From a phage, in the NCBI GenBank assembly GCA_025276375.1, contig GCA_025276375.1_3645.2: a stretch of DNA of 27,989 bases; one strand, written 5' to 3'. The translations under genes and the position numbers were made by a program. Shown here piece by piece: positions 617 to 13,865 of the stretch (the first letter of the stretch is position 1; each line of letters begins with the position of its first letter). Under the pieces are notes generated by a model. The model was given only the letters and a program-made list of their open reading frames with translations. It had not been told where the DNA came from and did not search any database.

Positions 617-3600
617 TTACTTCAGTTTCTCTTGCAATCCAGTAACAACCTCTGTCAATTTTTTAACCTGCTCCTCAAGGGCGGTTATTTTATCGTCCTG
701 TTCCCTGCAAACCTGGACAAGCAAGCCTGTTACAGCTGCGTAGTCAACGTTATAGAACCTTTCCTCGGTCATCAGAGGAATACCGTCTTGAGTAGGACCT
801 TCTATTTCCTTCCTTTTCACGAAAGATCCTACTGCCTCTGGCAATGCTTCCATAACCTCTTGAGCAATCACGCCTGCATAAGGCATACCATTCTCTTTCA
901 AGGTGTAGGTATAGCCTTTCATCTTTCTAATTGCTTCCAGAGCGTTAGGTATGACCTCTATATTATCCTTCAGGTCTCTATCGGAACTTTGGCTAACAGT
1001 GGTACATACTACCGTGCCGTTGACAGCAAAATATCTTGATTTAGCCTCATCTGCCTTAGCTCCGCAGTGGAATACCCAGCTGCCGGCTGTTGAGTTATCA
1101 CTTATCTGAAACTCAAGCACATTCTTCCTATCAGCGCCATTACCCCAATAGTACAACCTGCCTGTATTAGAAGGCATGTTCGAAGTGTTGGTAACATCAG
1201 CACCACCACCTGTATGTATTGTGAACTCAGGTTCAAGATTGGACCCTTGAGTTTTTAAAGTGATACCCTTACCGCCAAGCTGCTGCCAATGGCCCCATGT
1301 GAAAACACCACCTATCGTTGTTCCATAACGCAGGAATTTTTCTCCAAGATATGTTGTATATTCCTGTACGCAACTCTCTGGAACGTTGGCATAGTTTCTA
1401 TAGACAAGGAGAGTACCTGCCTGAGAGCATGGGTAGTTTCTATCAAGTGCGGCTTGAGCATTGGCCTCCTGATGATAAAAACCCTCTCTATCTCCTTTGT
1501 AGTCGTTAAGGTCATTAGTTCCCAACCCTTGACCACGGTGCTGAATAACTTTGTTCCACGCTCTGTGGTTTCCCTGCTCTATGGAACGAGTGTACAACTG
1601 GTCTAAACGACCTGCCATCTGGAAAGCGTAGTTTCCAGAAAATGCCACAGACAACCCGCCAACAACCATTGAACCTTCAGGTCCGTTGACGTTGCCAGCC
1701 AGTATTTTGGATGGGTTGTTAGGCCCAAACTGGTTGTTCCAGTCTGCACCAGTGTGGCATACAAAACCACCAGGGGCTGAAAAAGTACCATCCTTATTGA
1801 AGTTGTAGAATCTATGAGCTGTGCCTACAATATCACGAACAATAACTTGACCAGCCTCTGGGGTGGATCTGAACTCTGCCTGTCCTTGCAGTCTTGCCCC
1901 ATTGCCGCATTTAGAGGTAAAGGTATTGTTGATCAGATCCTCTGTTCCTTCCGATGCAGCCTGGAACCCTGCGTTAGAGAACAATGCTTTTCGAGTGGTT
2001 TGGCTACCCGGACAAATGTAGTTAAGACCGTTGTACCACATCTCTACAGGAGGCATCTCTGTCTTACTCATCAGAACCATTCTATCAGGCGTGCCTATAT
2101 AGTGCCAGCCTGCACCACCACCCGTATAGAACCCTGATGTTCCCTTGAACTCAGCAAGAGGCCTGGTGTTTGTTACATCATCACCTTTAATTGCAAGACT
2201 TAAATTATCTGACGCAAGAGGGGCGCAAAACTTGACACCATCTTGGTTGTTAGTTACATTTCCTACCTGCCAGTCATTTTCTCTGGTAAATACCTCAAGA
2301 ACGTTTCTGCTTGCGTAGACACTGACAGGGAAAGCACGCGCCTCAACATAGAATGCAACATACTCCTGCTTCCCTCTAGTTGGAGCTATACACCCAAGAA
2401 TTGCTTTCTCGTTTTGGTAGAAATTAATAACCCCTTGGAAAGAATCCCCTCTGTCTGTCCAACCACCAGTTCTATAGTGACACTGTAAGGTCGCACAGTT
2501 CATAGGGTCACCACCAGATGACGACCTAGTAACTATGGTAATATCGGTGCCAATAGTTGGAGCACAATACGGATCTGTTCTAACGATGATTGGGTAGTAT
2601 TTCCCATCTTCCATCCCTGCAGTTCTTGGCAGTGTTAAGAAATCTTTGACACCAGCAGCTATAGGAACTTTGAACAGATTCTGAGCATCTGCCAGGGTTG
2701 TAGCCCCTGTACCACCTGCGGCTTGCGGTAAAGGTTCCCACTTGGCCTTCCGGTTGTTATAAACACCCCATTCCAAAGTGCCGTTACCGGATTCGTCCAT
2801 TCCACCATCCCAGACAACCATCTTGGCGGCTTTCTTGGATCCCCAGAAGCCTCTTTCTGCTCCTGAACTACGAATCCATTCTCCAAGTCCCCAGTTTGTC
2901 AACTGACCAGTAAGATCCCCAACCTGCATATATTTAGGGCAGTCTAATACGCCGTCTTCGCGGAAACCTAAATATCTATGGGTTTCAGATCCTTTTGCAC
3001 CTTTATGGAGGTGGATTGTCAACCAAGCCTTATTGTCGTTTCTTACCTCAGAATAGATCCTATACCCATGCTCAAGAACACCATCAGTATTATATTTATC
3101 TCCATGGAGAATACCTGAGGCCGACTTAACATCTCCAGAGTATTGAGCTAAGTAAAGGTGCCCGAAGGCTGGCGAGTTGTTTTTACCAAGGCCGATATGA
3201 GATCTGAAGGTATCATCGTTACGAGGTCTGACCATCGGCTGCCATGCAGTCCACTGATTTGTGTTGGCCTGATAGGTTCTCAAATACCAAACATCTACGT
3301 TAGAGAATGGATAGTATTCCTGACGACAACCTGTACCGCCGTTAGCGTTGTTCTGCCAAACAATCAAGTGACCAGCACCAGAACCTGCAGGGTAACCATT
3401 TGCCTCAGTTGCATAAGCAGTCATTGGCTGGTAGTATACACCATCCTGATTACCAGTCAAGTTATTGATATTGAAATTTGGCTCAAGGGCTGCACGTTGC
3501 TTATAGAAAGCACCGATATTGATACGGATTCCAGCGGCATCTCTAGCCCCTGTGCCGCCCTGCTCTATAGCAAGAGGCTGCCAAGAAGCTGTTTGTTGGT

Positions 3601-4423
3601 TCCACATACCCCAACGGCCTGTTGCATCAAGCTGCAAGTACCCTGCTGTGTTTAAATCATCTCCAGCACGAATAACTGTTCTTGTTGGGTTGTTTGCCTC
3701 TAGGCGTTTAAATTCATCACGAAGTGCTATTCTTTTTGTTGTTGCTACACCGTTGGTTACTGCAATGGTATACATTGCTCCGGAGGTAGCACCACGGAAA
3801 ATACCATCAACAGTTGTAGTATCACGACGAGATACCACACCGTTCAGAAATTTTTCACCAGCTGCTACAGAAGGGTAGTTGGTAGTTCTTCCCTCTTCAA
3901 TAACTGCAGGGCCAACAAAGTTATCAAGGTGAATAACATCGCCTACAGTGTGCACTGTACCAAAATCTACACGCTGTGCAAGTGCTTTGGCATCGTTAGC
4001 TGTCTGAACAGTAACATCCATTACATCCTGGACAGACTGCCCTTCGGCTGTCATGATCATGGATGCGCCAATGGTAGATTCCAGCTCCTCCCTTAAGGAC
4101 GGGTCAGTATATACCATCCATGCAGCGTCAGTAATCCCGCCATCGGAGTACGGTGAAGATAGTGCAGGAACAGTGTGCGGAAATTCGCCTTTCCAACGCA
4201 GGTAGAGGTCTTCCTCTTCGAAGTAGGCAAAATCCATTGGGCCGTTTAACTTACCACCTTCCTTAAAGGAGATTACATGAGAAACAGTCCCATCAACATG
4301 GACAACATCGCCAATTTTTACACGACGGGTCAGGTCTGGTTGTTGAACAACCAGGTAATCATCCTCTGTCACTGCGGTAGTGGCAGGAAGAGATTCAATT
4401 CTGACAACTTTAATATCAGCCAT
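617..4423 (-). CDS. tail fibre / tailspike protein (1268 aa) with N-terminal virion-attachment domain and C-terminal S74-type intramolecular chaperone domain
   Basis: N-terminal ~105 aa share motifs with the 222-aa protein at 7058-7726 (LVVQQPDLTRRVKIGDVV vs LVVNQTDGTRKAKIDDVV; FKEGGKL...DFAY vs FTEGGYL...DFAY). C-terminal ~120 aa (SDRDLKDNIEVIPNALEAIRKMKGYTYTLKENG...) match the autoproteolytic chaperone domain of endosialidase and T5 L-shaped fibre type proteins. SD GGAGA upstream of the ATG at 4423. Confidence 0.8.
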   Translation of the reverse strand: MADIKVVRIESLPATTAVTEDDYLVVQQPDLTRRVKIGDVVHVDGTVSHVISFKEGGKLNGPMDFAYFEEEDLYLRWKGEFPHTVPALSSPYSDGGITDAAWMVYTDPSLREELESTIGASMIMTAEGQSVQDVMDVTVQTANDAKALAQRVDFGTVHTVGDVIHLDNFVGPAVIEEGRTTNYPSVAAGEKFLNGVVSRRDTTTVDGIFRGATSGAMYTIAVTNGVATTKRIALRDEFKRLEANNPTRTVIRAGDDLNTAGYLQLDATGRWGMWNQQTASWQPLAIEQGGTGARDAAGIRINIGAFYKQRAALEPNFNINNLTGNQDGVYYQPMTAYATEANGYPAGSGAGHLIVWQNNANGGTGCRQEYYPFSNVDVWYLRTYQANTNQWTAWQPMVRPRNDDTFRSHIGLGKNNSPAFGHLYLAQYSGDVKSASGILHGDKYNTDGVLEHGYRIYSEVRNDNKAWLTIHLHKGAKGSETHRYLGFREDGVLDCPKYMQVGDLTGQLTNWGLGEWIRSSGAERGFWGSKKAAKMVVWDGGMDESGNGTLEWGVYNNRKAKWEPLPQAAGGTGATTLADAQNLFKVPIAAGVKDFLTLPRTAGMEDGKYYPIIVRTDPYCAPTIGTDITIVTRSSSGGDPMNCATLQCHYRTGGWTDRGDSFQGVINFYQNEKAILGCIAPTRGKQEYVAFYVEARAFPVSVYASRNVLEVFTRENDWQVGNVTNNQDGVKFCAPLASDNLSLAIKGDDVTNTRPLAEFKGTSGFYTGGGAGWHYIGTPDRMVLMSKTEMPPVEMWYNGLNYICPGSQTTRKALFSNAGFQAASEGTEDLINNTFTSKCGNGARLQGQAEFRSTPEAGQVIVRDIVGTAHRFYNFNKDGTFSAPGGFVCHTGADWNNQFGPNNPSKILAGNVNGPEGSMVVGGLSVAFSGNYAFQMAGRLDQLYTRSIEQGNHRAWNKVIQHRGQGLGTNDLNDYKGDREGFYHQEANAQAALDRNYPCSQAGTLLVYRNYANVPESCVQEYTTYLGEKFLRYGTTIGGVFTWGHWQQLGGKGITLKTQGSNLEPEFTIHTGGGADVTNTSNMPSNTGRLYYWGNGADRKNVLEFQISDNSTAGSWVFHCGAKADEAKSRYFAVNGTVVCTTVSQSSDRDLKDNIEVIPNALEAIRKMKGYTYTLKENGMPYAGVIAQEVMEALPEAVGSFVKRKEIEGPTQDGIPLMTEERFYNVDYAAVTGLLVQVCREQDDKITALEEQVKKLTEVVTGLQEKLK
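620..985 (-). other. C-terminal intramolecular chaperone (peptidase S74-like) domain of the fibre, predicted to be self-cleaved near the Ser of SDRDLKDNIE
   Basis: Last 122 residues of the 1268-aa protein begin with the conserved S-D-x-x-L-K-x-N-I-E motif, followed by a hydrophobic/coiled-coil tail. Confidence 0.6.
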
Positions 4424-4437
4424 TCTTTCTCCTGAAA

Positions 4438-4454
4438 GGGGGCAAACAGCCCCC
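4438..4454 (-). other. perfect GC hairpin between the two fibre genes (attenuator or RNA-processing site; weak terminator)
   Basis: Minus-strand GGGGGC-UGUUU-GCCCCC followed by only UUUC, then the SD and start of the 1268-aa gene. Confidence 0.3.
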
Positions 4455-4458
4455 TATG

Positions 4459-7056
4459 TTAAAGGTACAATCCACGGTATTGAGCATAAAGGCCCAGACC
4501 GCGAAGGATTTCGCCAGAGTGATAGCCAACCGGATCAGAAACTGCCCAGCAGCCGTTTAAAATATTATCCCCATTAATGAAGTGGTGCTTTTGCAGTAGC
4601 TTCACACAGGCTTCCACAACAATATCTATTTGAGGTATTGTCTCTGAATACCCGCACAGACCTAGCCAGCAGCAACCTGCAAGCCATTCACCTACCACCC
4701 ACATCCTGTCTCCTCTGTCTTGATAAGAATATCCCCCAGAGGTGTTAAAGTCTGTGGGCAGATTTCCTGAATGAGATGACTGGAATCTGTTGAGGAACCA
4801 TGCCCATTTCTGGCAGAACAGGAATAGTCTTTCATCAACAGGTTCTTTATGTTTCTTGAGCTCATATATTGTGCGGCACGCAGCAACAAAAGATCTTGAC
4901 TGGAGTTTAGAGTTATCTACCATCTCCCACCAACCAGTCAGCCCTTCATTACCTCTCTGCCATACATAACGCGAGGCAACTGGACCCTCTGTCTTAAATG
5001 TATTATTATACCAGACTTGAGCGTCATACAGAAAGCCTATTGTATTTGACAATCTATGGCGATCTATGTTTTCTGCACCCATGCAGTAGACTGCTGGATA
5101 TTGCATGCCAGGGTAGGGCCAATTTGGCTTTTCCTCTAAGAGATAGTTTTCCTTATCTATCACCTTTCCGGCAGGGAACACACCAGGAGTGTGCCTGTAT
5201 GCACCTTGCTTGTAGTTTCTGACATAGCAATCACCAACCTTAGCGGTTGATTCTGTCTTGCTTGCCATCCATACGCTAAACCAGATTAGATAAGCATCCC
5301 TATCCGCGATATAAAATTGCGGCAGTGTGTTGACGCAATACAGATCAAACAATCCATTACCTATCTGCCTGTCGCTTAGGCTGAAATCTACAGAGGTGAG
5401 CCCCTTAGGATTAGCAAAGAAAGGTTTAATCTCTTCTTCGGTGTGATGAGGTTGTGTTGGATCTAGTTTGAAATCTCCTAGAGTAAGAGTTTCTGTTATC
5501 CATTGTCCATTAGTGGCATATAGATCAGCATACCATAACCACTTGTCTTTGTCAAGAAATTTGACCCTTACCATCTCATCATCTGATCGATAAGTTACTG
5601 AGTTTAAAGAAATCTCTCTTCCAAAATTGAAAGTTACTTTGCCTCTTGCTATATTACAACGGGTGAAGTTGTCAGAGTGGTTGTAAATGTCGGTATCGTA
5701 CTGCATACTAACACTGGCACCACCGCTCACGGCAATGTTTTCCTCTCTAGGTAAGAGGTACGGATTACCGTCTTTACCAACTACCTCTACGAAATCAGTA
5801 ACCTTGGCAACTATTCCTGTTACCTCTGCACCTCCAAAAGGGACACCTATCCTGTACTGTTTTTTGTTATTGTTGCCATCATTAAGGATGAAATGTGGCT
5901 GGAACAGAACCCCCTCCCCTCCGAAATTCATAACAATTTCAGCATCTCTGCCTATTTTGTATGTAGTCCCTTTTTGAATTATTTCGCAAGGCTGGCGTGC
6001 GTTCATTCTAAAATTGATATACCCGTCACTATCCCTGCTCATGACAGGAACTGTTCCTGCAACAAGACAAGCACCATCTGTAAATGGTGCCTTAATCAAT
6101 GTGGTCTTTCTAAACAGTTTGTCGTAGGCGTTTATATCACTGAAATTAAGCAACTTGTTGTAAGACTGTTTAAACGCGGTGTAGTACTTTTCCTCACCTG
6201 TCAAGGTGTAGAGTTGATAACAAGCGTCACACCACATTTCTTCCCCGTCCAACTCTGGGGCTTGATTGTCTGCAATCACGTTTATAGGATTCACAATTAC
6301 AGGGGATCCAGCAGGGATCACCGAGCCACCCTGCTCTTGAGGTAATCTTACACAATAGGTCACCTTGTGGCTTCCTGTAACACCCTTATCTTGTAATTGG
6401 ATTGTGCCGAACTCTACAGACGTATGACCACTGTCGGCTATGCTACCGTTAGCCCAATAGCGGTTACCATCCCATGCTATATACCACTCAACCCACCAAC
6501 TTAATCCGGATGTTGTCCAATCTGGGTTAGCATCTGTGCCACCGTAAACATCGGAGTCTACCGTGTTTCTTCCTAACACACCGTTATACGCTTGGAATGC
6601 CTTGTCCAGGTATTCTCCCCATGTCGGAGATCCAGCTGGGATTTTTCCTCTACCATTGGTAAAAGACACCACCACATCTTTAAACCCACCATGTGATGGA
6701 ACCCCATCTGTAGATAGAGGGTAGTGGGACAATCTTTGCATTTTACTTTCTACTGCATATGCACCCAGAAGATGACTATTGTAAGCTTCCCAAGCATCTT
6801 TTGCCCTATCCAGATAGAAATCGCTTTTCGATGCCCTGTATGCTTCAATGTATCCCAGAATCAACACAGCTTGGGACTCATGCATTGCCCAATCATTATT
6901 TATCTTATTACCTGCCCACCCTGCAGCTATAAGACCATCAGGGTTTACTAGCTTATTTTGTGTAGGGGTGTTGGTAATACCTGTGTTGTTATCGAGGCAC
7001 TTCCTGTGCCCCTCAATCATCTGAAATACGTTATCAATGTTATGTTGAATACGCAT
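4459..7056 (-). CDS. second receptor-binding protein / putative enzymatic tailspike (865 aa) lacking the shared N-terminal attachment domain
   Basis: Large ORF immediately downstream of the 222-aa attachment-domain protein, with start ATG 7056-7054 one nt after that gene's stop (7060-7058). Trp-rich segments at both termini. No attachment motif. Function inferred from context and size. Confidence 0.55.
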   Translation of the reverse strand: MRIQHNIDNVFQMIEGHRKCLDNNTGITNTPTQNKLVNPDGLIAAGWAGNKINNDWAMHESQAVLILGYIEAYRASKSDFYLDRAKDAWEAYNSHLLGAYAVESKMQRLSHYPLSTDGVPSHGGFKDVVVSFTNGRGKIPAGSPTWGEYLDKAFQAYNGVLGRNTVDSDVYGGTDANPDWTTSGLSWWVEWYIAWDGNRYWANGSIADSGHTSVEFGTIQLQDKGVTGSHKVTYCVRLPQEQGGSVIPAGSPVIVNPINVIADNQAPELDGEEMWCDACYQLYTLTGEEKYYTAFKQSYNKLLNFSDINAYDKLFRKTTLIKAPFTDGACLVAGTVPVMSRDSDGYINFRMNARQPCEIIQKGTTYKIGRDAEIVMNFGGEGVLFQPHFILNDGNNNKKQYRIGVPFGGAEVTGIVAKVTDFVEVVGKDGNPYLLPREENIAVSGGASVSMQYDTDIYNHSDNFTRCNIARGKVTFNFGREISLNSVTYRSDDEMVRVKFLDKDKWLWYADLYATNGQWITETLTLGDFKLDPTQPHHTEEEIKPFFANPKGLTSVDFSLSDRQIGNGLFDLYCVNTLPQFYIADRDAYLIWFSVWMASKTESTAKVGDCYVRNYKQGAYRHTPGVFPAGKVIDKENYLLEEKPNWPYPGMQYPAVYCMGAENIDRHRLSNTIGFLYDAQVWYNNTFKTEGPVASRYVWQRGNEGLTGWWEMVDNSKLQSRSFVAACRTIYELKKHKEPVDERLFLFCQKWAWFLNRFQSSHSGNLPTDFNTSGGYSYQDRGDRMWVVGEWLAGCCWLGLCGYSETIPQIDIVVEACVKLLQKHHFINGDNILNGCWAVSDPVGYHSGEILRGLGLYAQYRGLYL

Positions 7057-7057
7057 C

Positions 7058-7726
7058 TTAGATAGCTCCTGCGATAATCAGTGCCCCGTACCAAGTTAAC
7101 CCGTTGTCGTAGGTTTCCAACTTGAAAATGTCTGTTGCACCAGCTGTAAATGTTAGGATAGGATCTCTTCCGTAGGACCATTTAACATTACCGGGCCAAT
7201 AGACTTTGTTGCCGCCAGAGGTCTGAGTAATGCATACGGTTATAGTTCTCGCCACCCCTTCAAGACCTTCTGTTTGATTTTCAAAAGAGATTGTGGTATT
7301 TGAAGTTAGTCGAACCTTAAAGGTATCCGCAACTTCAAGATCCATATCAAGCTGACCACCGATAGATCCGTAATCAACTATTCTGCCAGAAGAAGTTGCA
7401 GCAAGCTCACCAAAAACAGACCAGGCATTTGCAGACACACCCCCAGCACCCTCTACAGTAGAGTCTGGGAGGATTATTTTAGGATAATCCCCGTTCCACG
7501 TGTAGTAGCGCTTAGTTTCTGGATCATAAGCAAAGTCCTTCTTGCTCTTAAGATAACCACCCTCTGTGAAATAGACTATCTTAGTGATGCTAAGATCGTT
7601 GACAACATCGTCAATCTTAGCCTTTCTTGTCCCATCAGTCTGGTTGACAACCAAGAAGTCATCACTCAGGACTGTTTCTGCATCTTCAAGATCTGGAATT
7701 GGTATTGTAGGATAAGCTACAGCCAT
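7058..7726 (-). CDS. tail fibre attachment/adaptor protein (222 aa) sharing the N-terminal domain of the large fibre
   Basis: About 40% identity by eye over ~105 N-terminal residues with the 1268-aa protein. Short C-terminal region. Translationally coupled to the 865-aa gene. Confidence 0.55.
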   Translation of the reverse strand: MAVAYPTIPIPDLEDAETVLSDDFLVVNQTDGTRKAKIDDVVNDLSITKIVYFTEGGYLKSKKDFAYDPETKRYYTWNGDYPKIILPDSTVEGAGGVSANAWSVFGELAATSSGRIVDYGSIGGQLDMDLEVADTFKVRLTSNTTISFENQTEGLEGVARTITVCITQTSGGNKVYWPGNVKWSYGRDPILTFTAGATDIFKLETYDNGLTWYGALIIAGAI

Positions 7727-7735
7727 GATTTCTCC

Positions 7736-8452
7736 TTAGTTAACATCAATAGCACGACCAGACTGGTTGGCAATAGCCTCATCATTGGAGGTAGCAATAA
7801 CACCAGAGTATTCGCGCTCATCTGGAGCAAGCGTCCAGGTATTGCGGTTAATGGTTTGTTCTGCCTCAGTCATGAGCAGATCTTTATCCTGAGTCAACAG
7901 AGAGCCTACAGGGATCGGGTTTTCCATCTCAGGACCAGCATACTGGTTCCACCATGTGGCATCTCCGGTTCTAGGCAATCTGAAGTTGATCAGATAGTAC
8001 AGTTTATTAGCCCACTTAATCCAACCCTCATCATCACAGAGGGAGGTTGTCCCAGAATCAGGCTGTGGGTATGTGAACTGATCAAGACCTACAAAAGCCA
8101 GCCTTACAATCTCGTTCTCTTTGGTAACAACCTCAAAGAACGCTTGGTATGTTCTCGATCTTCGATCCATGGTAGATTGGAAGTTTATGATGTTTAGCAC
8201 ATCCGGCTCTTGTCTTGCCACTTCCATAATCTTGTTATCAAGAACAGTCTTCATGACCTTCTTGCTGAGAAAGTCCATATAAGGGAAGCCAAACAGCTCG
8301 TCAAAGTACCAGCTCCCCTTCCACGTATTAAACCTCATCCACAAGCGCTGGCGCAGACTCACCTGGTTTGAATCTATCAACTCAAGACCTTTGTCTATCG
8401 CCAAATCGCCTGTCTGCGGGTCCATCAATATATCACTATAAAGCGTAGCCAT
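7736..8452 (-). CDS. baseplate protein, possibly gp25/GpW-like wedge component (238 aa)
   Basis: Position between the spike and the fibre genes. N-terminal pattern LRQRLWMRFNTWKGSWYFDELFGFPYMDFL resembles the conserved baseplate wedge signature. Not verified. Confidence 0.35.
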   Translation of the reverse strand: MATLYSDILMDPQTGDLAIDKGLELIDSNQVSLRQRLWMRFNTWKGSWYFDELFGFPYMDFLSKKVMKTVLDNKIMEVARQEPDVLNIINFQSTMDRRSRTYQAFFEVVTKENEIVRLAFVGLDQFTYPQPDSGTTSLCDDEGWIKWANKLYYLINFRLPRTGDATWWNQYAGPEMENPIPVGSLLTQDKDLLMTEAEQTINRNTWTLAPDEREYSGVIATSNDEAIANQSGRAIDVN

Positions 8453-8464
8453 GAAAGCCCTCTA

Positions 8465-9142
8465 TTAGTGCGGTCCACTTGTCTCGCCATCAGGGCAAGA
8501 GTGGGTATGACCTTTATATTCTGCATAGAATGAATCCAAATCCACACCAGCAGCAGTTATAATTCTACCAGATGGGTCTATTGTGGCACCATTCATTCTG
8601 ATATTTCCATCCACAGCAGCTCGCAAATTGGCAGCCCCGTTAGTGAAAGAAAACTCCCCGCTGCTGTCGCACCGTAATGTCCCACCAGGTGTTTGAAGCT
8701 CAAAATCGCCAGAAGGTGTCAGTTTAAAATAAACCCTATCATTCCATAACTCTACGTTATCAGGATCGATCTGTAAAGCGTTTGAGTCTGAATGGACAGA
8801 GGTGATTGCCCACCCTGGAAACAGGCCGTGAGTTTGTTGATCGTCGTTATTGTTTTCATTTCTCTCTGAAAACTGTAATCCTACAACATCTCCAGCCTTA
8901 ATAGGAAGTGTTAACCTTGCCTTTCCGCTGTTTGCAGACATCACCTGAATTGGAACGTCATAGATAAGAGGGTATCTCTCCACATCTCCGTCATCAAACG
9001 TGGTTTCAGCTATTGGCTGCACAGATGCAGAAGGGATACTGTAGTCTACACTGACAACTCTGGCCCTGATACTGGTGTGGTAGTCCCTCATTATTTTTTC
9101 TATGAAGGATCTTACAGCAGCATCTTTCCTATTTATTGCCAT
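8465..9142 (-). CDS. baseplate central spike protein (gpV/gp5-like, 225 aa) with C-terminal His-rich apex
   Basis: C-terminus ...EYKGHTHSCPDGETSGPH carries an HxH-type metal-binding tip motif as in P2 gpV-type spikes. Size and position next to the hub-sized gene. Start overlaps the upstream stop (TAATG). Confidence 0.55.
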   Translation of the reverse strand: MAINRKDAAVRSFIEKIMRDYHTSIRARVVSVDYSIPSASVQPIAETTFDDGDVERYPLIYDVPIQVMSANSGKARLTLPIKAGDVVGLQFSERNENNNDDQQTHGLFPGWAITSVHSDSNALQIDPDNVELWNDRVYFKLTPSGDFELQTPGGTLRCDSSGEFSFTNGAANLRAAVDGNIRMNGATIDPSGRIITAAGVDLDSFYAEYKGHTHSCPDGETSGPH

Positions 9143-10146
9143 TATACCTCCTCAGTTTTGTCAACAACTCCACCTACTGTTTCCCCAAGGCCAAGCTCTG
9201 TAGTGTAATCACCACCTTCTATGGTGCCCTTATGATGCACCGTGATCACCTTATAGAAGCCTGTATATTGCTTGCTTTTAAGATAAATAGTGGACTCTGG
9301 GAGGATAGCTCCGTTAAGGCATGTGGTTACAGTAAGGCCAACATCCTCTCTCGGGTTTTTCTTTTTCTTTTTAGATGTCGAACCACCTTTGGCAGCAGCT
9401 TTAGCTTTTCGTTTTTTAGCAGGTTCTGGGTTTTTAGGGGTAGGAGATCCGTGCATCCCAGACTCTGCGCTTATTTCAAACACAGAGTCTTTGAACCTTT
9501 TTCCAACCTTGGTCCAATACAAAGCCCCATCCTGAACGCTAAATGTTGAGTTGGTCAGCCTTGCAAACCTGCGGAGGTTCTCTGCAGTGTTTCCAGAGAA
9601 AGCCATAGAGTATTGCAAAGTCTGGTTTCCAAAACCAACAACCCTACCTTTTGGCAAGTTCATATCCTTCAGTAAGTCATTAAGCACAGAGTTCAGAGGT
9701 GTGCCTTTCTGATAAGATCTTGTGCTTTGGCACTTAATGATGTTCTCAGTGCCATCCCCAAAGATGAACTTAGTTTTTCTGGTAGGACCTTCCCATCTGT
9801 CTTCAACAAACTCCACAGTTCCGGAGAATATCAACTGGTTCTCATTATCATAGCCAGCTTCAAACATAACTGCAAGAGCATCAGCCTGATGCATATCCAG
9901 ATAGTTAACTGTATCGTCGGACAGGTTGTAAACTGTCACATAACCTTTGTTTGGCTCTTTGGTATTGTCCTTTTGTATGTCAAACTCTATATTGGCAGCA
10001 CCAGTGTCTGAGCTAACTTCATAAACTCCGGAATCACTCTCCCCTTTCTTTTCAACAGATTTTGGGATATTGGTTTTTGATTTACCGCCATGTTCTACAG
10101 GACGACCAAACAATAATCGCCATGTTCTACGTCTGTACTCTGCCAT
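9142..10146 (-). CDS. baseplate hub / tail structural protein (334 aa) with internal lysine-rich low-complexity segment
   Basis: Position between TMP-proximal genes and the spike. Contains PAKKRKAKAAAKGGSTSKKKKKNPR. SD GAGGAGG (plus 9147-9153 cctcctc). No motif recognised. Confidence 0.35.
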   Translation of the reverse strand: MAEYRRRTWRLLFGRPVEHGGKSKTNIPKSVEKKGESDSGVYEVSSDTGAANIEFDIQKDNTKEPNKGYVTVYNLSDDTVNYLDMHQADALAVMFEAGYDNENQLIFSGTVEFVEDRWEGPTRKTKFIFGDGTENIIKCQSTRSYQKGTPLNSVLNDLLKDMNLPKGRVVGFGNQTLQYSMAFSGNTAENLRRFARLTNSTFSVQDGALYWTKVGKRFKDSVFEISAESGMHGSPTPKNPEPAKKRKAKAAAKGGSTSKKKKKNPREDVGLTVTTCLNGAILPESTIYLKSKQYTGFYKVITVHHKGTIEGGDYTTELGLGETVGGVVDKTEEV

Positions 10147-10526
10147 TATTCTAACCCTTGCTGTTCCTTGTAAAGATCAACTGGGGTGCCGTATACAAGT
10201 TGTAGCTCGGATCTTGCTCCAAGGTTGTATCTTCCAACCCTGCCCCAATATTGATCATCTTTAAACGACAGTGCCATCAATCTACCTTTCGGTAAATCGT
10301 CTCTATAATGCAGTCCGTCTAAGATATCTTGACAAGCTGTTACTTTTCTGGTTACTAAAGGGCTGTCACCTACTGGACCAAGAGATAACCACCAAGACTC
10401 ATCCCTCTCATTCCATTGCATACGCATTTCATACGTTTCGTTGTCTAAAACAACACGCATGGTTTGATCAGGAAAGCCGTCAATGTCCCACACGAAGGTG
10501 ATTATGCACCAATCTTTAAGCTCCAT
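10146..10526 (-). CDS. tail/baseplate structural protein (126 aa)
   Basis: ORF in the tail module overlapping the downstream start by 1 nt. Function from context only. Confidence 0.3.
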   Translation of the reverse strand: MELKDWCIITFVWDIDGFPDQTMRVVLDNETYEMRMQWNERDESWWLSLGPVGDSPLVTRKVTACQDILDGLHYRDDLPKGRLMALSFKDDQYWGRVGRYNLGARSELQLVYGTPVDLYKEQQGLE

Positions 10527-10538
10527 TATACGCTCCCC

Positions 10539-11423
10539 TTATTTCCCGTTAACTTTGTTGTAGTTTCCCTGCTCAGATGGGACTATGGTAGAAGGTCTTC
10601 CATATTCCTGATAATACCAATCCGCAGCCGATTGGGTAACACCGTTTTCATCTGTCCACATCATAGATTTGTATGGCTGCCACTCCTCTGCAGCGTTTGT
10701 GGATGCAGTGTCTGCGAATGCTCCTGTGTCCCTCTTGTTACCTACGTTACTACCATTCTTACAGTCGTTGACAGCACCTTTTTGTTGGGTCTTGCCTACT
10801 TTCTTAGGATTGCTGTATACAGTTGCATTAACAACCTTGTTCAAGTAGAATGTGCGGAACTCTGTAAGCTCTACATCAAAAACCATTGCAGCACCTTCGC
10901 CAACAGACTTGCTGGCAGAAAGGCTGGTTATAATGTAGTTCTCAAGGAGTCTTTCCTCGGTAACCAAAGAAACCAATTGGCGCTTATTAATGATTTCAGT
11001 CAAAGCCTCCAGTGCAGCGCCCGGTCGCATAGATGCTGCAGGGTTTTTAGAGTCAGTATTCCTGTCAATGTAGTTTTGCTCATAGATTATATGTGGTGAT
11101 GTATTTACCCTACCAGTAAAAGAAAATACACCATCTTTAATTACAGCGTGGTCTGACAGGGTAGATTTATCTTCCACTGCAAAATCAGTCTTATCAACAG
11201 AATGTTTGAAAGAATAGTTCTCAACCTGGTCGAAGATAATGGCAAGATCGTTAGTAAAGTTTTTACCCTTCATCTCCGTATTGCGACCACCATAGTTAAG
11301 ACCGCTGACAAACATAGTGTACTTTACATCGCTTTCAGTTTGCTGCTCTGCCTTTTCAGCCTTTGGAGATTTAACCTCTTGAGGCTTGTACAGGTCTTTT
11401 TCATCAACTATATTGCTTGGCAT
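10539..11423 (-). CDS. tail structural protein downstream of TMP (about 294 aa; start likely the ATG at 11423 rather than the track start 11450)
   Basis: The ATG at 11423 (MPSNIVDEK...) has GGAGAGG just upstream. The track start at 11450 lies only 7 nt after a promoter -10 element and lacks an SD. Confidence 0.4.
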   Translation of the reverse strand: MPSNIVDEKDLYKPQEVKSPKAEKAEQQTESDVKYTMFVSGLNYGGRNTEMKGKNFTNDLAIIFDQVENYSFKHSVDKTDFAVEDKSTLSDHAVIKDGVFSFTGRVNTSPHIIYEQNYIDRNTDSKNPAASMRPGAALEALTEIINKRQLVSLVTEERLLENYIITSLSASKSVGEGAAMVFDVELTEFRTFYLNKVVNATVYSNPKKVGKTQQKGAVNDCKNGSNVGNKRDTGAFADTASTNAAEEWQPYKSMMWTDENGVTQSAADWYYQEYGRPSTIVPSEQGNYNKVNGK

Positions 11424-11456
11424 AACCTCTCCAGGACACTCCGATACCATCTAGAT

Positions 11457-11485
11457 ATTGTATCATAAAATAGCTGTTTTTACAA
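11457..11485 (-). promoter_or_regulatory. sigma70-like promoter TTGTAA-N17-TACAAT downstream of the TMP terminator
   Basis: Minus-strand -35 TTGTAA (11485-11480) and -10 TACAAT (11462-11457), 17-nt spacer, followed by the SD and ATG at 11423. Confidence 0.4.
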
Positions 11486-11487
11486 CA

Positions 11488-11517
11488 CCGATAAAATAAA
11501 GGGGGCCCGGAGCCCCC
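11488..11517 (-). terminator. intrinsic terminator after the tape measure gene
   Basis: Minus-strand GGGGGC-UCCGG-GCCCCC followed by UUUAUUUUAU, immediately after the TMP stop (11529). Confidence 0.55.
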
Positions 11518-11528
11518 TGCACAGTTTA

Positions 11529-13865
11529 TTACCAAAGGTCGGTAGACATGAAGTTGATATCTTTATTGTTCTCCCACTCAAGTTTTGCATCAAATATTTT
11601 GTTAAACTCACCCTCATCTATTGAAATCGTGATTTTCCCATCACTGATCTCTAAAGGTAGCATTTCCATAGTTCTTAATTGAGAAGCAAAACCGGGGCCA
11701 CCTGGCAACGGAAGAGTCCCGCCCGGTAAGGTGTCCAAAGGATTAACAAACCCGTTACCTCCTGATATGATATCTTTGCGAATCATATCGCTGATAGTGT
11801 CCAGCTGCTGATTTCTTTCACTTAGTGGGTTGTAACGGTCATTAAATAATTCCCCGGCGCTTAGTATTGTACCGATAATACCCAGCTTACCAAGCAGACC
11901 AACTTTGCCACCAGGTGTCTTGAGGCCACCTCCACCTTTTCCTGCCGGAGCTCCACCACTAGATCCTTCTGCAGTAGCGACACCAGCTGCTCCAGCTGCA
12001 CCTCTTAAAGAGTTAAGGAATTTAAAGGTTTTTACAAGCATGGATGCCATGACAAAACCTTTTGTTAGGGCGTTGACTACCAGCATGATGGCAGCAGCAA
12101 ACCCTGCCCATCTAGCATAGCTAAAGGTGTCATGAAGCTCTTCAGAATATTCCTTCGTCTTAGCTGTTATGAATCCCCATTTAATCCCCCATTCAAGGAA
12201 AAACATGCGGATCTTGACTATAGTGTTGTTTAGTTCACCAACTACCCAGTTAAGGCCTCTCACAAACCCGCTAACAAAATCACCAGAGGCATCCCACACA
12301 AATTGCAGAGTCTCACCAGTGCGGATCAGTGTATAATAGAACTCTGTCAGTTCGTCAGACCAACGGGTGAACAGTTTCTGACGAGTCAGTTCGATGAAGG
12401 TTTTCAGTCTGTTTTCTGCCAGCACGTTAGACTTCTGCATTCTTTCATAACCAGCTGCAGATGCCTCGTTCATGTACTTAGCCACATACTTCATGATCTT
12501 GGCTGTTTTAACCTCACCTTTCTTCATCATGTCCATGAACTGATCCATGGAGAGTTCAGAAAGACCAAAAGCCTCTTTGGTGGCCTTGATAAAAGGTTCG
12601 TATGCACCAGGCAATGCTTCAGCAAGCTGTTGCTTCAGTTCCTCGGACATTACTTGTCCCTTGCCAAGCATCTGCTGGATTGCCATGATACCGCGCTGAT
12701 ATTTTACCTCATCAGCACCATAAGCAGCAGCATACTGGGAGTATGCAGAAAACAGCTCATGCACTTCCTGATTTGTCATCTGGTTTTTGGCGTTTACCGA
12801 CATCTGGGCGTAACCTTGAAGACCAGATTTGAGATCAAAACCAAGACGCATAGCCTCTTGCTGGACAAACGCAACCTCACTGTTGGCTTTGTTTGGATCT
12901 CCAGTAACAGCAGTAAGAGCAGCACTTGCCCCCTCCATCATGTGACCGGATCTATTAACCGCAGCAAATCCAGAAAAAGCTGTATACGCAGCTGTTGCAT
13001 TAATAACAGATCTACGTAAGTCTCTCATGGCATCGCCTAGTGTAAGCGTTTGGCTGGTGGCGCTTTTAAATCCAGACTGCAGAGCTGACAGGTGGGCGTT
13101 AAAGGTTGACTTTTTCATCTCCCCGCGAGCAAACCTAGACTCTAACTCTGAGTATCCTGGCAAGCTTCCACGGAATCCGGCCCCATACTTGGCAGAAAGT
13201 CTTATCGCGGAGTTGTAGAGGTGGGTTCTCCTTGCCTCACGATCCGACATAAGCCTATTATCCATACCAGCTTTACTGTCTCTTCTTAGCTGTCTATGAT
13301 AACGATTCATGGCAGCGGTCTGGGCTTTCACAAGATTAGGATCTGAAGCCACCCCACCCATGTTCGGGTTGCCTGGAATATATCTGAAAGACTTGGCGTT
13401 AGCAAGAACTCTTGCCTTAGGTGCCTTATAACCCCCATAGGATACTGGTGCAGATTTGGCAGCTTTTTTAGCCTCTTTAGCTTGCTGCTGGTAGAACTTA
13501 CGCATCCTAGCCATCTCCGGGTTTTTGGCGGTAAGATTGCCTACAGCTTGCCTACGTCTTGCATTCTCCCTACGCTCTATTGCAGCCTTTACTGCAGCCT
13601 CTTTCTTGGCCTGAGCAACGCTCTCCCTGTGCAGTTTAGCATTTGCTTGAGATTGTTGTCTGGCAACACGTTGCATTGTCTGCTGAGTTTTAACCGCCAC
13701 TGCCTGCCATCTACTCATGGGGTTGGCTGAGTTAAAATCCTCGCCCAGTTTCCTGAACTCCCTCCCAATACTGCGAATTTTCTCTACAGCTTTTTTGTAG
13801 GAGGAGTTCTCTATCTCAAAGCCAATCTTGTTGACTGTTGTGGCAACTATTTTGTTTGTAGCCAT
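11529..13865 (-). CDS. tail tape measure protein (778 aa)
   Basis: Long alpha-helical-type protein directly after the chaperone pair. Gly-rich hydrophobic segment (GAAGAAGVATAEGSSGGAPAGKGGGGLKTPGGKVGLLGKLGIIG). SD GAGG before the ATG at 13865. Confidence 0.8.
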   Translation of the reverse strand: MATNKIVATTVNKIGFEIENSSYKKAVEKIRSIGREFRKLGEDFNSANPMSRWQAVAVKTQQTMQRVARQQSQANAKLHRESVAQAKKEAAVKAAIERRENARRRQAVGNLTAKNPEMARMRKFYQQQAKEAKKAAKSAPVSYGGYKAPKARVLANAKSFRYIPGNPNMGGVASDPNLVKAQTAAMNRYHRQLRRDSKAGMDNRLMSDREARRTHLYNSAIRLSAKYGAGFRGSLPGYSELESRFARGEMKKSTFNAHLSALQSGFKSATSQTLTLGDAMRDLRRSVINATAAYTAFSGFAAVNRSGHMMEGASAALTAVTGDPNKANSEVAFVQQEAMRLGFDLKSGLQGYAQMSVNAKNQMTNQEVHELFSAYSQYAAAYGADEVKYQRGIMAIQQMLGKGQVMSEELKQQLAEALPGAYEPFIKATKEAFGLSELSMDQFMDMMKKGEVKTAKIMKYVAKYMNEASAAGYERMQKSNVLAENRLKTFIELTRQKLFTRWSDELTEFYYTLIRTGETLQFVWDASGDFVSGFVRGLNWVVGELNNTIVKIRMFFLEWGIKWGFITAKTKEYSEELHDTFSYARWAGFAAAIMLVVNALTKGFVMASMLVKTFKFLNSLRGAAGAAGVATAEGSSGGAPAGKGGGGLKTPGGKVGLLGKLGIIGTILSAGELFNDRYNPLSERNQQLDTISDMIRKDIISGGNGFVNPLDTLPGGTLPLPGGPGFASQLRTMEMLPLEISDGKITISIDEGEFNKIFDAKLEWENNKDINFMSTDLW

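Follow-up and report, generated by a model that had tools for sequence, protein, structure and literature searches.

Almost all characterized phage depolymerases are trimeric β-helices or propellers, and the tail proteins that resemble the one described here have been given an enzymatic name. In rV5 virions, gp42 and gp43 were found by mass spectrometry (PMC3606486), and LL12 gp42 aligns with phi92 gp141 over almost its whole length (PMC7229145). In a review table that refers to Schwarzer 2012, phi92 gp141 appears as 'Glycosidase' (PMC5380687), and the BASEL genome annotation describes another ortholog (bas48_0025) as a 'lateral tail fiber protein with glycosidase domains'. The glycosidase label dates from 2012 and 2021 and already stands in the literature and databases, so the core of the present finding is not new. 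Here, we analyse the gp42 gene in a 27,989-nucleotide stretch of phage DNA (GenBank assembly GCA_025276375.1, contig GCA_025276375.1_3645.2; hereafter the window), where it occupies positions 4459..7056 on the minus strand. The analysis adds a split-barrel architecture, predicted with high confidence, that carries insertions resembling carbohydrate-binding modules (CBMs). It also shows that gp42 fits no single glycoside hydrolase (GH) family, that it has an obligatory adaptor partner and that the rV5 clade has diverged from the consensus of the family. In the explanation that we favour, with a probability of roughly 0.6 as a whole, gp42 is a globular, virion-borne module of carbohydrate-active type that sits on the adaptor gp43 and serves in the binding and perhaps the cleavage of a glycan.

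The gp42 gene is an uninterrupted open reading frame (ORF) of 865 codons. An earlier note on this DNA, made from the sequence alone, had delimited the ORF correctly; the coding strand is the minus strand. The plus-strand frame at 4459..7056 is full of stops, and all long ORFs of the window are on the minus strand. The protein matches PHROG 2871 ('tail protein') with an E-value of 0 over residues 1–863, which was the sole match in single-sequence searches of domain, PDB and PHROG collections. About 120 Vequintavirus genomes carry an annotated protein that shares 97–99% identity with it. A megablast search with window positions 4000–12000 returned 122 phage records, 114 of them with at least 80% coverage; nearly all matches have 95–99% identity, and all are rV5-like (Vequintavirus) Escherichia coli myophages. 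On the basis of size, order and published descriptions, the 222-, 865- and 1268-residue products of the locus are rV5 gp43, gp42 and gp41, respectively, and by its similarities the 865-residue protein is assigned as the ortholog of rV5 gp42, LL12 gp42 and phi92 gp141. Comparison of the gp42 gene with that of phage CarlMeissner gives a ratio of non-synonymous to synonymous substitution rates (dN/dS) of 0.045 (57 synonymous and 10 non-synonymous codon differences), which shows strong purifying selection. The identity of the homologues, the mass spectrometry of rV5 virions and the dN/dS value establish the ORF as a real gene.

The structure of gp42 was predicted with AlphaFold2 (AF2) using an alignment of 38 sequences (A1), and secondary structure was assigned by DSSP. 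The AF2 monomer has a mean predicted local distance difference test (pLDDT) score of 89.1 and a predicted template modelling (pTM) score of 0.84. It contains eleven helices (residues 2–23, 59–76, 79–96, 269–286, 289–305, 663–687, 716–735, 742–761, 782–800, 809–824 and 844–862) and two β regions (residues 101–254 and 329–613). The helices are contributed by residues 1–96, 263–312 and 663–865 and are predicted with high confidence to form one six-hairpin (α/α)6 barrel, whose long inter-hairpin loops would be occupied by the two β insertions. The last helix of the model pairs with the first to close the barrel, and gp42 conforms to the twelve-helix α/α barrel of the six-hairpin superfamily.

All segments of the split barrel are encoded on the minus strand. 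Toroid segment 1 (residues 1–96; 6769..7056) contains the first three helices (2–23, 59–76 and 79–96). The conserved residues E60 and Q62 lie at the N-terminal end of helix 2, and the segment also bears the generic six-hairpin motif ILGYIEAYRASKSDFYLDRAKDAWEAY. β insertion 1 (residues 97–262; 6271..6768) lies between barrel helices 3 and 4 and is rich in tryptophan (W180–W201). Toroid segment 2 (residues 263–312; 6121..6270) forms a single hairpin (269–286 and 289–305) with a D270-x-E272 motif. β insertion 2 (residues 313–613; 5218..6120) is β-rich, gives matches to CBM-type jelly rolls and contains the invariant residue D502; it probably folds into two sandwiches, at least one of which is predicted with high confidence to be CBM-like. 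A conserved linker rich in proline and glycine (residues 614–662; 5071..5217) returns the chain to the barrel. The family motif of this linker, YTPGVIPFSN...WRGLPYPGYQYP, is partly replaced in the window phage, and the linker is disordered if it is modelled without the barrel. Toroid segment 3 (residues 663–865 and the stop codon; 4459..5070) supplies the remaining six helices.

The earlier note had proposed, from four peptides that are indeed present in gp42 (residues 44–95, 699–713, 747–759 and 784–803), that tryptophan-rich helical ends flank a β-rich middle, as in α/α-toroid hydrolases or lyases. The AF2 model strongly supports the fold proposed there: structure prediction gave a compact (α/α)6 barrel and no fibrous fold, and the profile searches described below point to six-hairpin proteins throughout. 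The layout of helical ends and β middle is recovered as well, refined by the hairpin at residues 269–305, which divides the middle into two insertions. The peptide at residues 699–713, taken for a helix, is a β-hairpin or loop in the model. Tryptophan accounts for 3.1% of all residues (27 W); ten lie within the C-terminal 210 residues and three within the 52-residue N-terminal string, but the densest cluster (six W at residues 180–201) is located inside a predicted β insertion and not in a helix. The proposed fold of glycosidase type is supported, the lyase side is not favoured, and the non-β-helix spike that it envisaged is correct in the lack of a β-helix, but gp42 is also devoid of a virion anchor and of fibre- or spike-like features.

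Relatives of gp42 occur in many phage groups. Full-length relatives with 26–35% identity were detected by tblastn in phi92-like and phAPEC8-like phages, Cronobacter GAP31, Rosemountvirus (SE13), Kolesnikvirus (Erwinia, Ounavirinae), jumbo phages (SPN3US and Asesino), a Crifsvirus and T7-like Autographiviridae (Atoyac10 and Kaonashi). The identity to the phi92-like proteins is ∼35% over the full length. A word-indexed homology search returned only six proteins, from a single sequence and from an alignment alike, and exhaustive phmmer was used instead. Against 1.84 billion representatives, it found only 91 clusters (50% identity), and the gp42 family is small and essentially phage-borne. No full-length solved homologue was found; BFVD holds family members or fragments only.

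Profile searches place the barrel in the six-hairpin superfamily. The A1 profile (38 sequences) gave 11 weak matches to PDB sequences (E-values of 0.003–0.1), all 11 of which are (α/α)6 proteins, namely GH76 mannanases, cellobiose 2-epimerases or a 'six-hairpin glycosidase'. When the β insertions were removed, the toroid-only profile matched six-hairpin proteins in 17 of 17 cases, the best being a GH76 protein (E-value of 5.6e-5). These alignments rest on a generic hairpin motif (ILGY..Y.ATkd..YLd.A...w.ay), and the segment-1 motif ILGYIEAYRASKSDFYLDRAKDAWEAY underlies the matches to GH76 and cellobiose 2-epimerase. The matches are weak and show membership of the superfamily, not of a family. 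Assignment to one GH family through the toroid-only profile was rejected: the alignments cover the recurring hairpin motif in several different registers and therefore do not define a catalytic one. Weak Pfam matches to GH76, GH127 and GH47 occur in gp42 relatives. A match of gp42 to GH76 (PF03663) at the gathering score was not found, and only 3 of the 38 relatives give a hit, with E-values of at least 0.0034. HMMER aligns D270 with the leading aspartate of the GH76 'DD' pair, but the consecutive catalytic aspartates of GH76 are replaced by D-A/G-E in gp42. Family-level sequence signatures of GH8, GH105, GH88 and GH48 were not found in gp42.

An (α/α)6 scaffold could also support other chemistry, and gp42 might be a polysaccharide lyase (PL) or a sugar epimerase or isomerase. 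AGE-type epimerases use catalytic histidines, and a histidine is conserved at position 786 in the family consensus. However, this position is a tryptophan in the window phage, and the epimerization of free sugars is implausible for a virion protein. The sequence matches to epimerases stem, as described above, from the generic hairpin motif and not from catalytic motifs. PL toroids (PL5, PL8, PL15, PL17 and PL21) are absent from the top 60 toroid matches, so a lyase is not favoured, and gp42 does not show the pattern of PL8, PL15, PL17 and PL21, in which a lyase-like toroid is followed by a C-terminal, not an inserted, sandwich. We consider such alternative chemistry improbable.

The position of the gene in a tail-fibre locus, between baseplate genes and gp41, and the annotation of relatives as 'tail fiber' or 'tail protein' would fit a classical trimeric tailspike depolymerase, in which gp42 itself would be the receptor-binding spike. 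The predicted structure speaks against this identity. The gp42 model contains an α/α barrel and β sandwiches and no right-handed parallel β-helix, and neither Pfam nor AF2 indicates a coiled coil, a fibre shaft, an N-terminal anchor or a C-terminal chaperone. Moreover, gp42 is predicted as one compact multi-domain globule as a monomer, and the anchor domain Tail_spike_N is found on other proteins (gp43 and gp41). A trimeric tailspike is thus a highly improbable description of gp42.

The conserved residues of the family are distributed unevenly over the barrel. Residues conserved at ≥80% include E60, Q62, N103, K105, R249, N250, D270, E272, W274, R341, E360, D502 and Y622 in the first part of the protein and W643, Y651, Q652, N671, D678, Q680, W699, R701, D703, W715, Y718, R721, H786 and E849 in the second. 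D270 is present in 36 of the 38 aligned sequences and E272 in 33. Most of the family-conserved residues fall either at the N-terminal ends of alternate helices (59–76, 269–286, 716–735, 782–800 and 844–862) or in the long inter-hairpin loops, which also bear the β insertions. Five conserved carboxylates near helix N-termini (E60, D270, E272, D678 and E849) are candidates for catalysis. The short turns of the barrel (76–79, 286–289, 735–742 and 800–809) must all lie on the opposite face, which would put the conserved residues on the long-loop face. In known six-hairpin enzymes, the long-loop face of the barrel is the active site. On the basis of helix topology, the conserved residues of gp42 would therefore decorate a face of catalytic type.

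The gene directly upstream of gp42 encodes gp43 (7058..7726, minus strand), a putative adaptor of 222 residues that is orthologous to phi92 gp140. One nucleotide separates the gp43 stop codon from the gp42 ATG, which is preceded by a Shine–Dalgarno-like AGGAG. The gp43 protein has an N-terminal anchor region (residues 8–105; 7412..7705, minus strand) that matches Tail_spike_N (PF18668, Pfam E-value of 2.1e-10) and a conserved C-terminal domain (residues 125–222; 7061..7354, minus strand) with the pattern NKVxWPxNVxW...P.L...D...D.G..W.G. No Pfam family covers the C-terminal domain, which one relative's record labels Phi92_gp140.

The association of this C-terminal domain with the toroid is conserved across distant phages. 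A small gene (∼156–270 codons) abuts the toroid gene directly upstream in eight of eight lineages, represented by rV5-like phages, the phi92-like phage muut, SE13, SPN3US, Erwinia vEam_W_28, Kaonashi, Atoyac10 and ECO319P1. The eight adaptors have unrelated N-termini, that of the Aeromonas phage Atoyac10 being annotated with a phage T7 tail fiber domain, and share a common C-terminal domain of ∼100 residues with 14 invariant residues. A tblastn search with the adaptor C-domain alone retrieved 525 phage records, and the toroid also retrieved 525. The numbers for adaptor domain and toroid are 240 and 243 in Escherichia records, 101 and 101 in Salmonella, 33 and 33 in Erwinia and 12 and 12 in Cronobacter, and the two are adjacent in both records for which coordinates of each were listed (rV5_ev146 and EspYZU15). 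These observations suggest that gp43 and gp42 constitute a two-component appendage in which the C-domain of gp43 would act as the docking domain. Apart from the short protein P0064 described below, fusions of adaptor and toroid of the 'Rosetta stone' kind were not detected among 96 family proteins. P0025 and P0036 have long extensions at the N-terminus, but these do not contain the adaptor domain.

Three further observations concern gp43 and its relatives. Residues 8–105 of gp43 share 38% identity with residues 7–105 of gp41 (window 4109–4405; BLASTP E-value of 3e-18), which suggests that the two proteins may dock to equivalent sites of the baseplate or fibre network. The BASEL annotation labels the gp43 ortholog of CarlMeissner (bas48_0024; L001, 9059–9727) a 'sialidase domain protein'; gp43 shows only Tail_spike_N and the conserved adaptor C-domain, and Pfam and PHROG searches gave no sialidase match. 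A single protein of 293 residues, P0064, carries both family elements, with ∼180 N-terminal toroid residues followed by the adaptor domain (residues 202–287, E-value of 8.9e-20). The two genes normally occur in the opposite order, and P0064 could be a real recombinant or an artefact of assembly or gene calling.

Taken together, these features are best accommodated by a virion-borne module of carbohydrate-active type on gp43. gp42 has no anchor of its own, and gene arrangement and co-occurrence suggest that gp43, to which it is translationally coupled, attaches it to the baseplate or fibre network. The variable N-terminus of gp43, here Tail_spike_N, would fit the particular virion, and the conserved C-domain would hold the toroid. 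The most likely role of gp42 would then be to bind, and perhaps cleave, a conserved glycan of the host surface as the phage adsorbs. The protein is nearly invariant among rV5-like phages and is therefore unlikely to track a variable O-antigen or capsule.

Several points weigh against this explanation. Single-sequence Pfam and PDB searches with gp42 gave no matches, no CAZy or Pfam family is assigned to gp42 at threshold, and the literature yielded no published activity or glycan binding for any family member. The contact between gp43 and gp42 is deduced from gene arrangement and co-occurrence, and the catalytic face is assigned from helix topology. Furthermore, the window protein differs from the consensus at 32 of the 113 columns conserved in the family, mostly in loops that would lie on the catalytic face, compared with a median of ∼8 for other members. 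The closest relative outside the rV5-like phages is P0003, from an uncultured phage, with 56% identity. The window protein and P0003 deviate at 32–33 of the 113 columns and at 20–22 of the 50 polar or aromatic ones, whereas the phi92-type protein P0007 deviates at six of the conserved columns. Motif loops are also deleted in the rV5 clade. An enzymatic, spike or receptor-binding reading of gp42 is unproven and, given these substitutions, appears somewhat doubtful for the rV5 clade.

The divergence of the rV5 clade affects defined motifs. The CNWxxNGK loop at the start of β insertion 1 is deleted in the window protein and the rV5 clade, RNEPWHNRP is replaced by AGSPVIVNP, WDN...HWG...W.GYQPRAF is shortened with the substitutions D703N, W715N and Y718L, and GHM is replaced by RMW (H786W). 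Family-conserved residues lost in the clade include N103, R249, N250, N267, E360, Y622, W643, Y651, D703, W715, Y718 and H786. The residues E60, Q62, D270, E272, D678, Q680, W699, R701, R721 and E849 are kept in the window protein. As the carboxylates are retained while many other family-conserved residues that would line the active-site face are replaced, the activity may have been retargeted or reduced to binding, and the remodelled loop residues could reflect either a changed specificity or binding only. A second clade, P0042 and P0048, which consists of uncultured sequences only, has independently lost even more of the conserved residues, including the positions of E60, D270 and H786. This hints that the canonical site has been lost more than once in the family.

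The same divergence brings in the alternative that the rV5-like toroid is a pseudo-enzyme or structural hub, that is, a non-catalytic, lectin-like binder or a scaffold node of the branched tail-fibre network that joins gp43 to other fibre components. The loss of many family-conserved residues and of motif loops, and the similar loss in P0042 and P0048, would be expected of such a protein. The C-terminal additions of relatives are very different (an NCTSP TIM barrel, a Gly-rich domain or Big_2), as if the toroid were a proximal platform, and near-invariance with strong purifying selection in rV5-like phages fits a structural role as well. However, the most plausible catalytic carboxylates (E60, D270, E272, D678 and E849) are kept together with W699, R701 and R721, some apparent losses may be one-residue alignment shifts (W274 versus W275), and changed subsites are equally compatible with a changed substrate. 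A non-catalytic hub is accordingly possible, and we hold it to be somewhat unlikely.

The virion-borne module may be part of a larger assembly in some relatives, in which the toroid is recurrently linked to a second module. In P0020 (residues 969–1521) and P0025 (residues 1214–1762), the toroid is C-terminally fused to NCTSP_N and TIM-barrel_NCTSP domains of the N4 gp65 type. The gene that follows the toroid gene in phage muut (gp025; L009, 5880–7955) encodes Calx-beta, NCTSP_N and TIM-barrel_NCTSP domains (E-value of 7.6e-82), and its product is assigned to the phi92 gp142 type. A 2026 preprint describes the phi92 gp142 type as a binder of the NGR glycan, and NGR has been proposed to be a polymer that contains N-acetylmannosamine (ManNAc; PMC8669472). 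The cryo-electron microscopy (cryo-EM) study of phi92 left 'fiber II' without an assigned gene and considered only fibre-shaped candidates; gp141 and gp142 are unmentioned there (PMC13450770).

These facts allow, and do not establish, that gp140, gp141 and gp142 of phi92 constitute fiber II and act on NGR. A wider proposal would join this assignment to a self-contained two-gene host-glycan module of adaptor and toroid that moves horizontally, with only the N-terminus of the adaptor swapped for each virion. It would extend over myoviruses of 130–150 kb, phages of 52 and 85 kb, T7-like Autographiviridae, a Crifsvirus of 75 kb and jumbo phages of 240–370 kb. The consensus-type toroid would be a glycanase for the ManNAc-containing NGR glycan, which would parallel the Listeria GH8 enzyme PssZ, and the remodelled rV5-like toroid would be a non-canonical and possibly non-catalytic glycan binder or fibre hub. 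We offer this combination tentatively and regard it as unlikely to hold in all its parts. A separate identity for gp42 itself, the 'sugar deacetylase' or N4 gp64-type fibre named in BASEL, was rejected because no tblastn match was obtained: N4 gp64, gp65 and gp66 show no similarity to the window or to 20 kb of phage CarlMeissner. According to the 2026 preprint, the deacetylase-fibre domain belongs to the phi92 gp142 type, and the muut genome confirms this placement, with the NCTSP domains in the gene next to the toroid and not in the toroid protein.

The remainder of the locus provides genomic context. On the minus strand, the tape measure gene (11529..13865) is followed by genes for the tube initiator, plug, hub, spike and a sheath-initiator-like protein and then by gp43, gp42 and gp41. 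The gp41 gene (617..4423, minus strand) encodes the 1268-residue long tail fibre, which bears a separate Tail_spike_N anchor and, at its C-terminus, a Peptidase_S74 chaperone and lies outside the gp42 module. A perfect GC hairpin (GGGGGC-TGTTT-GCCCCC followed by TTT; window 4435–4454, minus strand) begins four nucleotides past the gp42 stop codon and directly precedes the AGGAG of gp41. The hairpin was not called in a scan for consensus terminators, its T-tract being too short; a role in weak attenuation or in RNA stability is possible. Among the database records, 23 unannotated entries named 'Campylobacter phage' (host C. jejuni; including MG065646, MG065647, MG065656, MG065662 and MG065666) contain rV5-like or phi92-like sequence with 97–99% identity to E. 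coli phages, and their organism and host labels look doubtful.

Although neither a Pfam family nor a solved structure represents it, the gp42 family occurs in hundreds of phage isolates. Its carriers include rV5-like, phi92-like, Felix-O1-like (Ounavirinae) and SPN3US-type phages, and some of these are under study for use in therapy and biocontrol. Knowledge of the fold would make the enzymatic question directly testable through named residues (E60, D270, E272 and D678), and the rV5 clade and the consensus-type members form a natural pair for asking whether the protein is an enzyme or a binder. The fixed adaptor partner provides a handle for engineering and for reading cryo-EM maps of baseplates. 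The finding changes no established picture.

In comparison with known systems, gp42 of the window belongs with rV5 gp42, phi92 gp141 and LL12 gp42 to the same family, with the same locus position and as a virion component. It differs from the phi92-type proteins, to which it is ∼35% identical, in that these keep the consensus residues (6 deviations versus 32). In addition, the gene after gp42 in the rV5-like window encodes the fibre gp41 and not an NCTSP protein as in the phi92-like muut. The N4 gp65-type protein with NCTSP_N and TIM-barrel_NCTSP domains, exemplified by phi92 gp142, is encoded next to the toroid or fused to it but is not its homologue.

The six-hairpin glycoside hydrolases (GH8 3ren, CelA and PssZ; GH105/GH88 YteR and UGL; GH76; GH48) share only 9–13% identity with gp42. 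In contrast to these enzymes, the gp42 barrel is broken by β insertions of ∼165 and ∼350 residues and is closed by pairing of the first and last helices. They are secreted or periplasmic, whereas gp42 is virion-borne. GH76 enzymes are α-1,6-mannanases with a catalytic Asp-Asp, in place of which gp42 has D-A/G-E.

Among phage proteins, gp42 lacks the trimeric β-helix or β-propeller of P22 gp9, the K1F endosialidase and CBA120 TSP1–4, and its system distributes the anchor and the enzyme-like body over separate polypeptides. According to DepoScope, α/α toroids account for ∼1% of the polysaccharide-degrading folds in phage proteins (PMC11326577). The arrangement of gp43 and gp42 resembles that of the K1E and K1-5 fibres, in which an enzyme-type protein with a gene of its own is borne by a small adaptor specific to the virion (PMC13450770). 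It differs from them in the docking domain of gp43, which is a distinct, conserved C-terminal domain of ∼100 residues. This domain accompanies the toroid in Vequintavirus, Justusliebigvirus, Kolesnikvirus and Rosemountvirus and also in the 240-kb Seoulvirus SPN3US, Crifsvirus and Autographiviridae.

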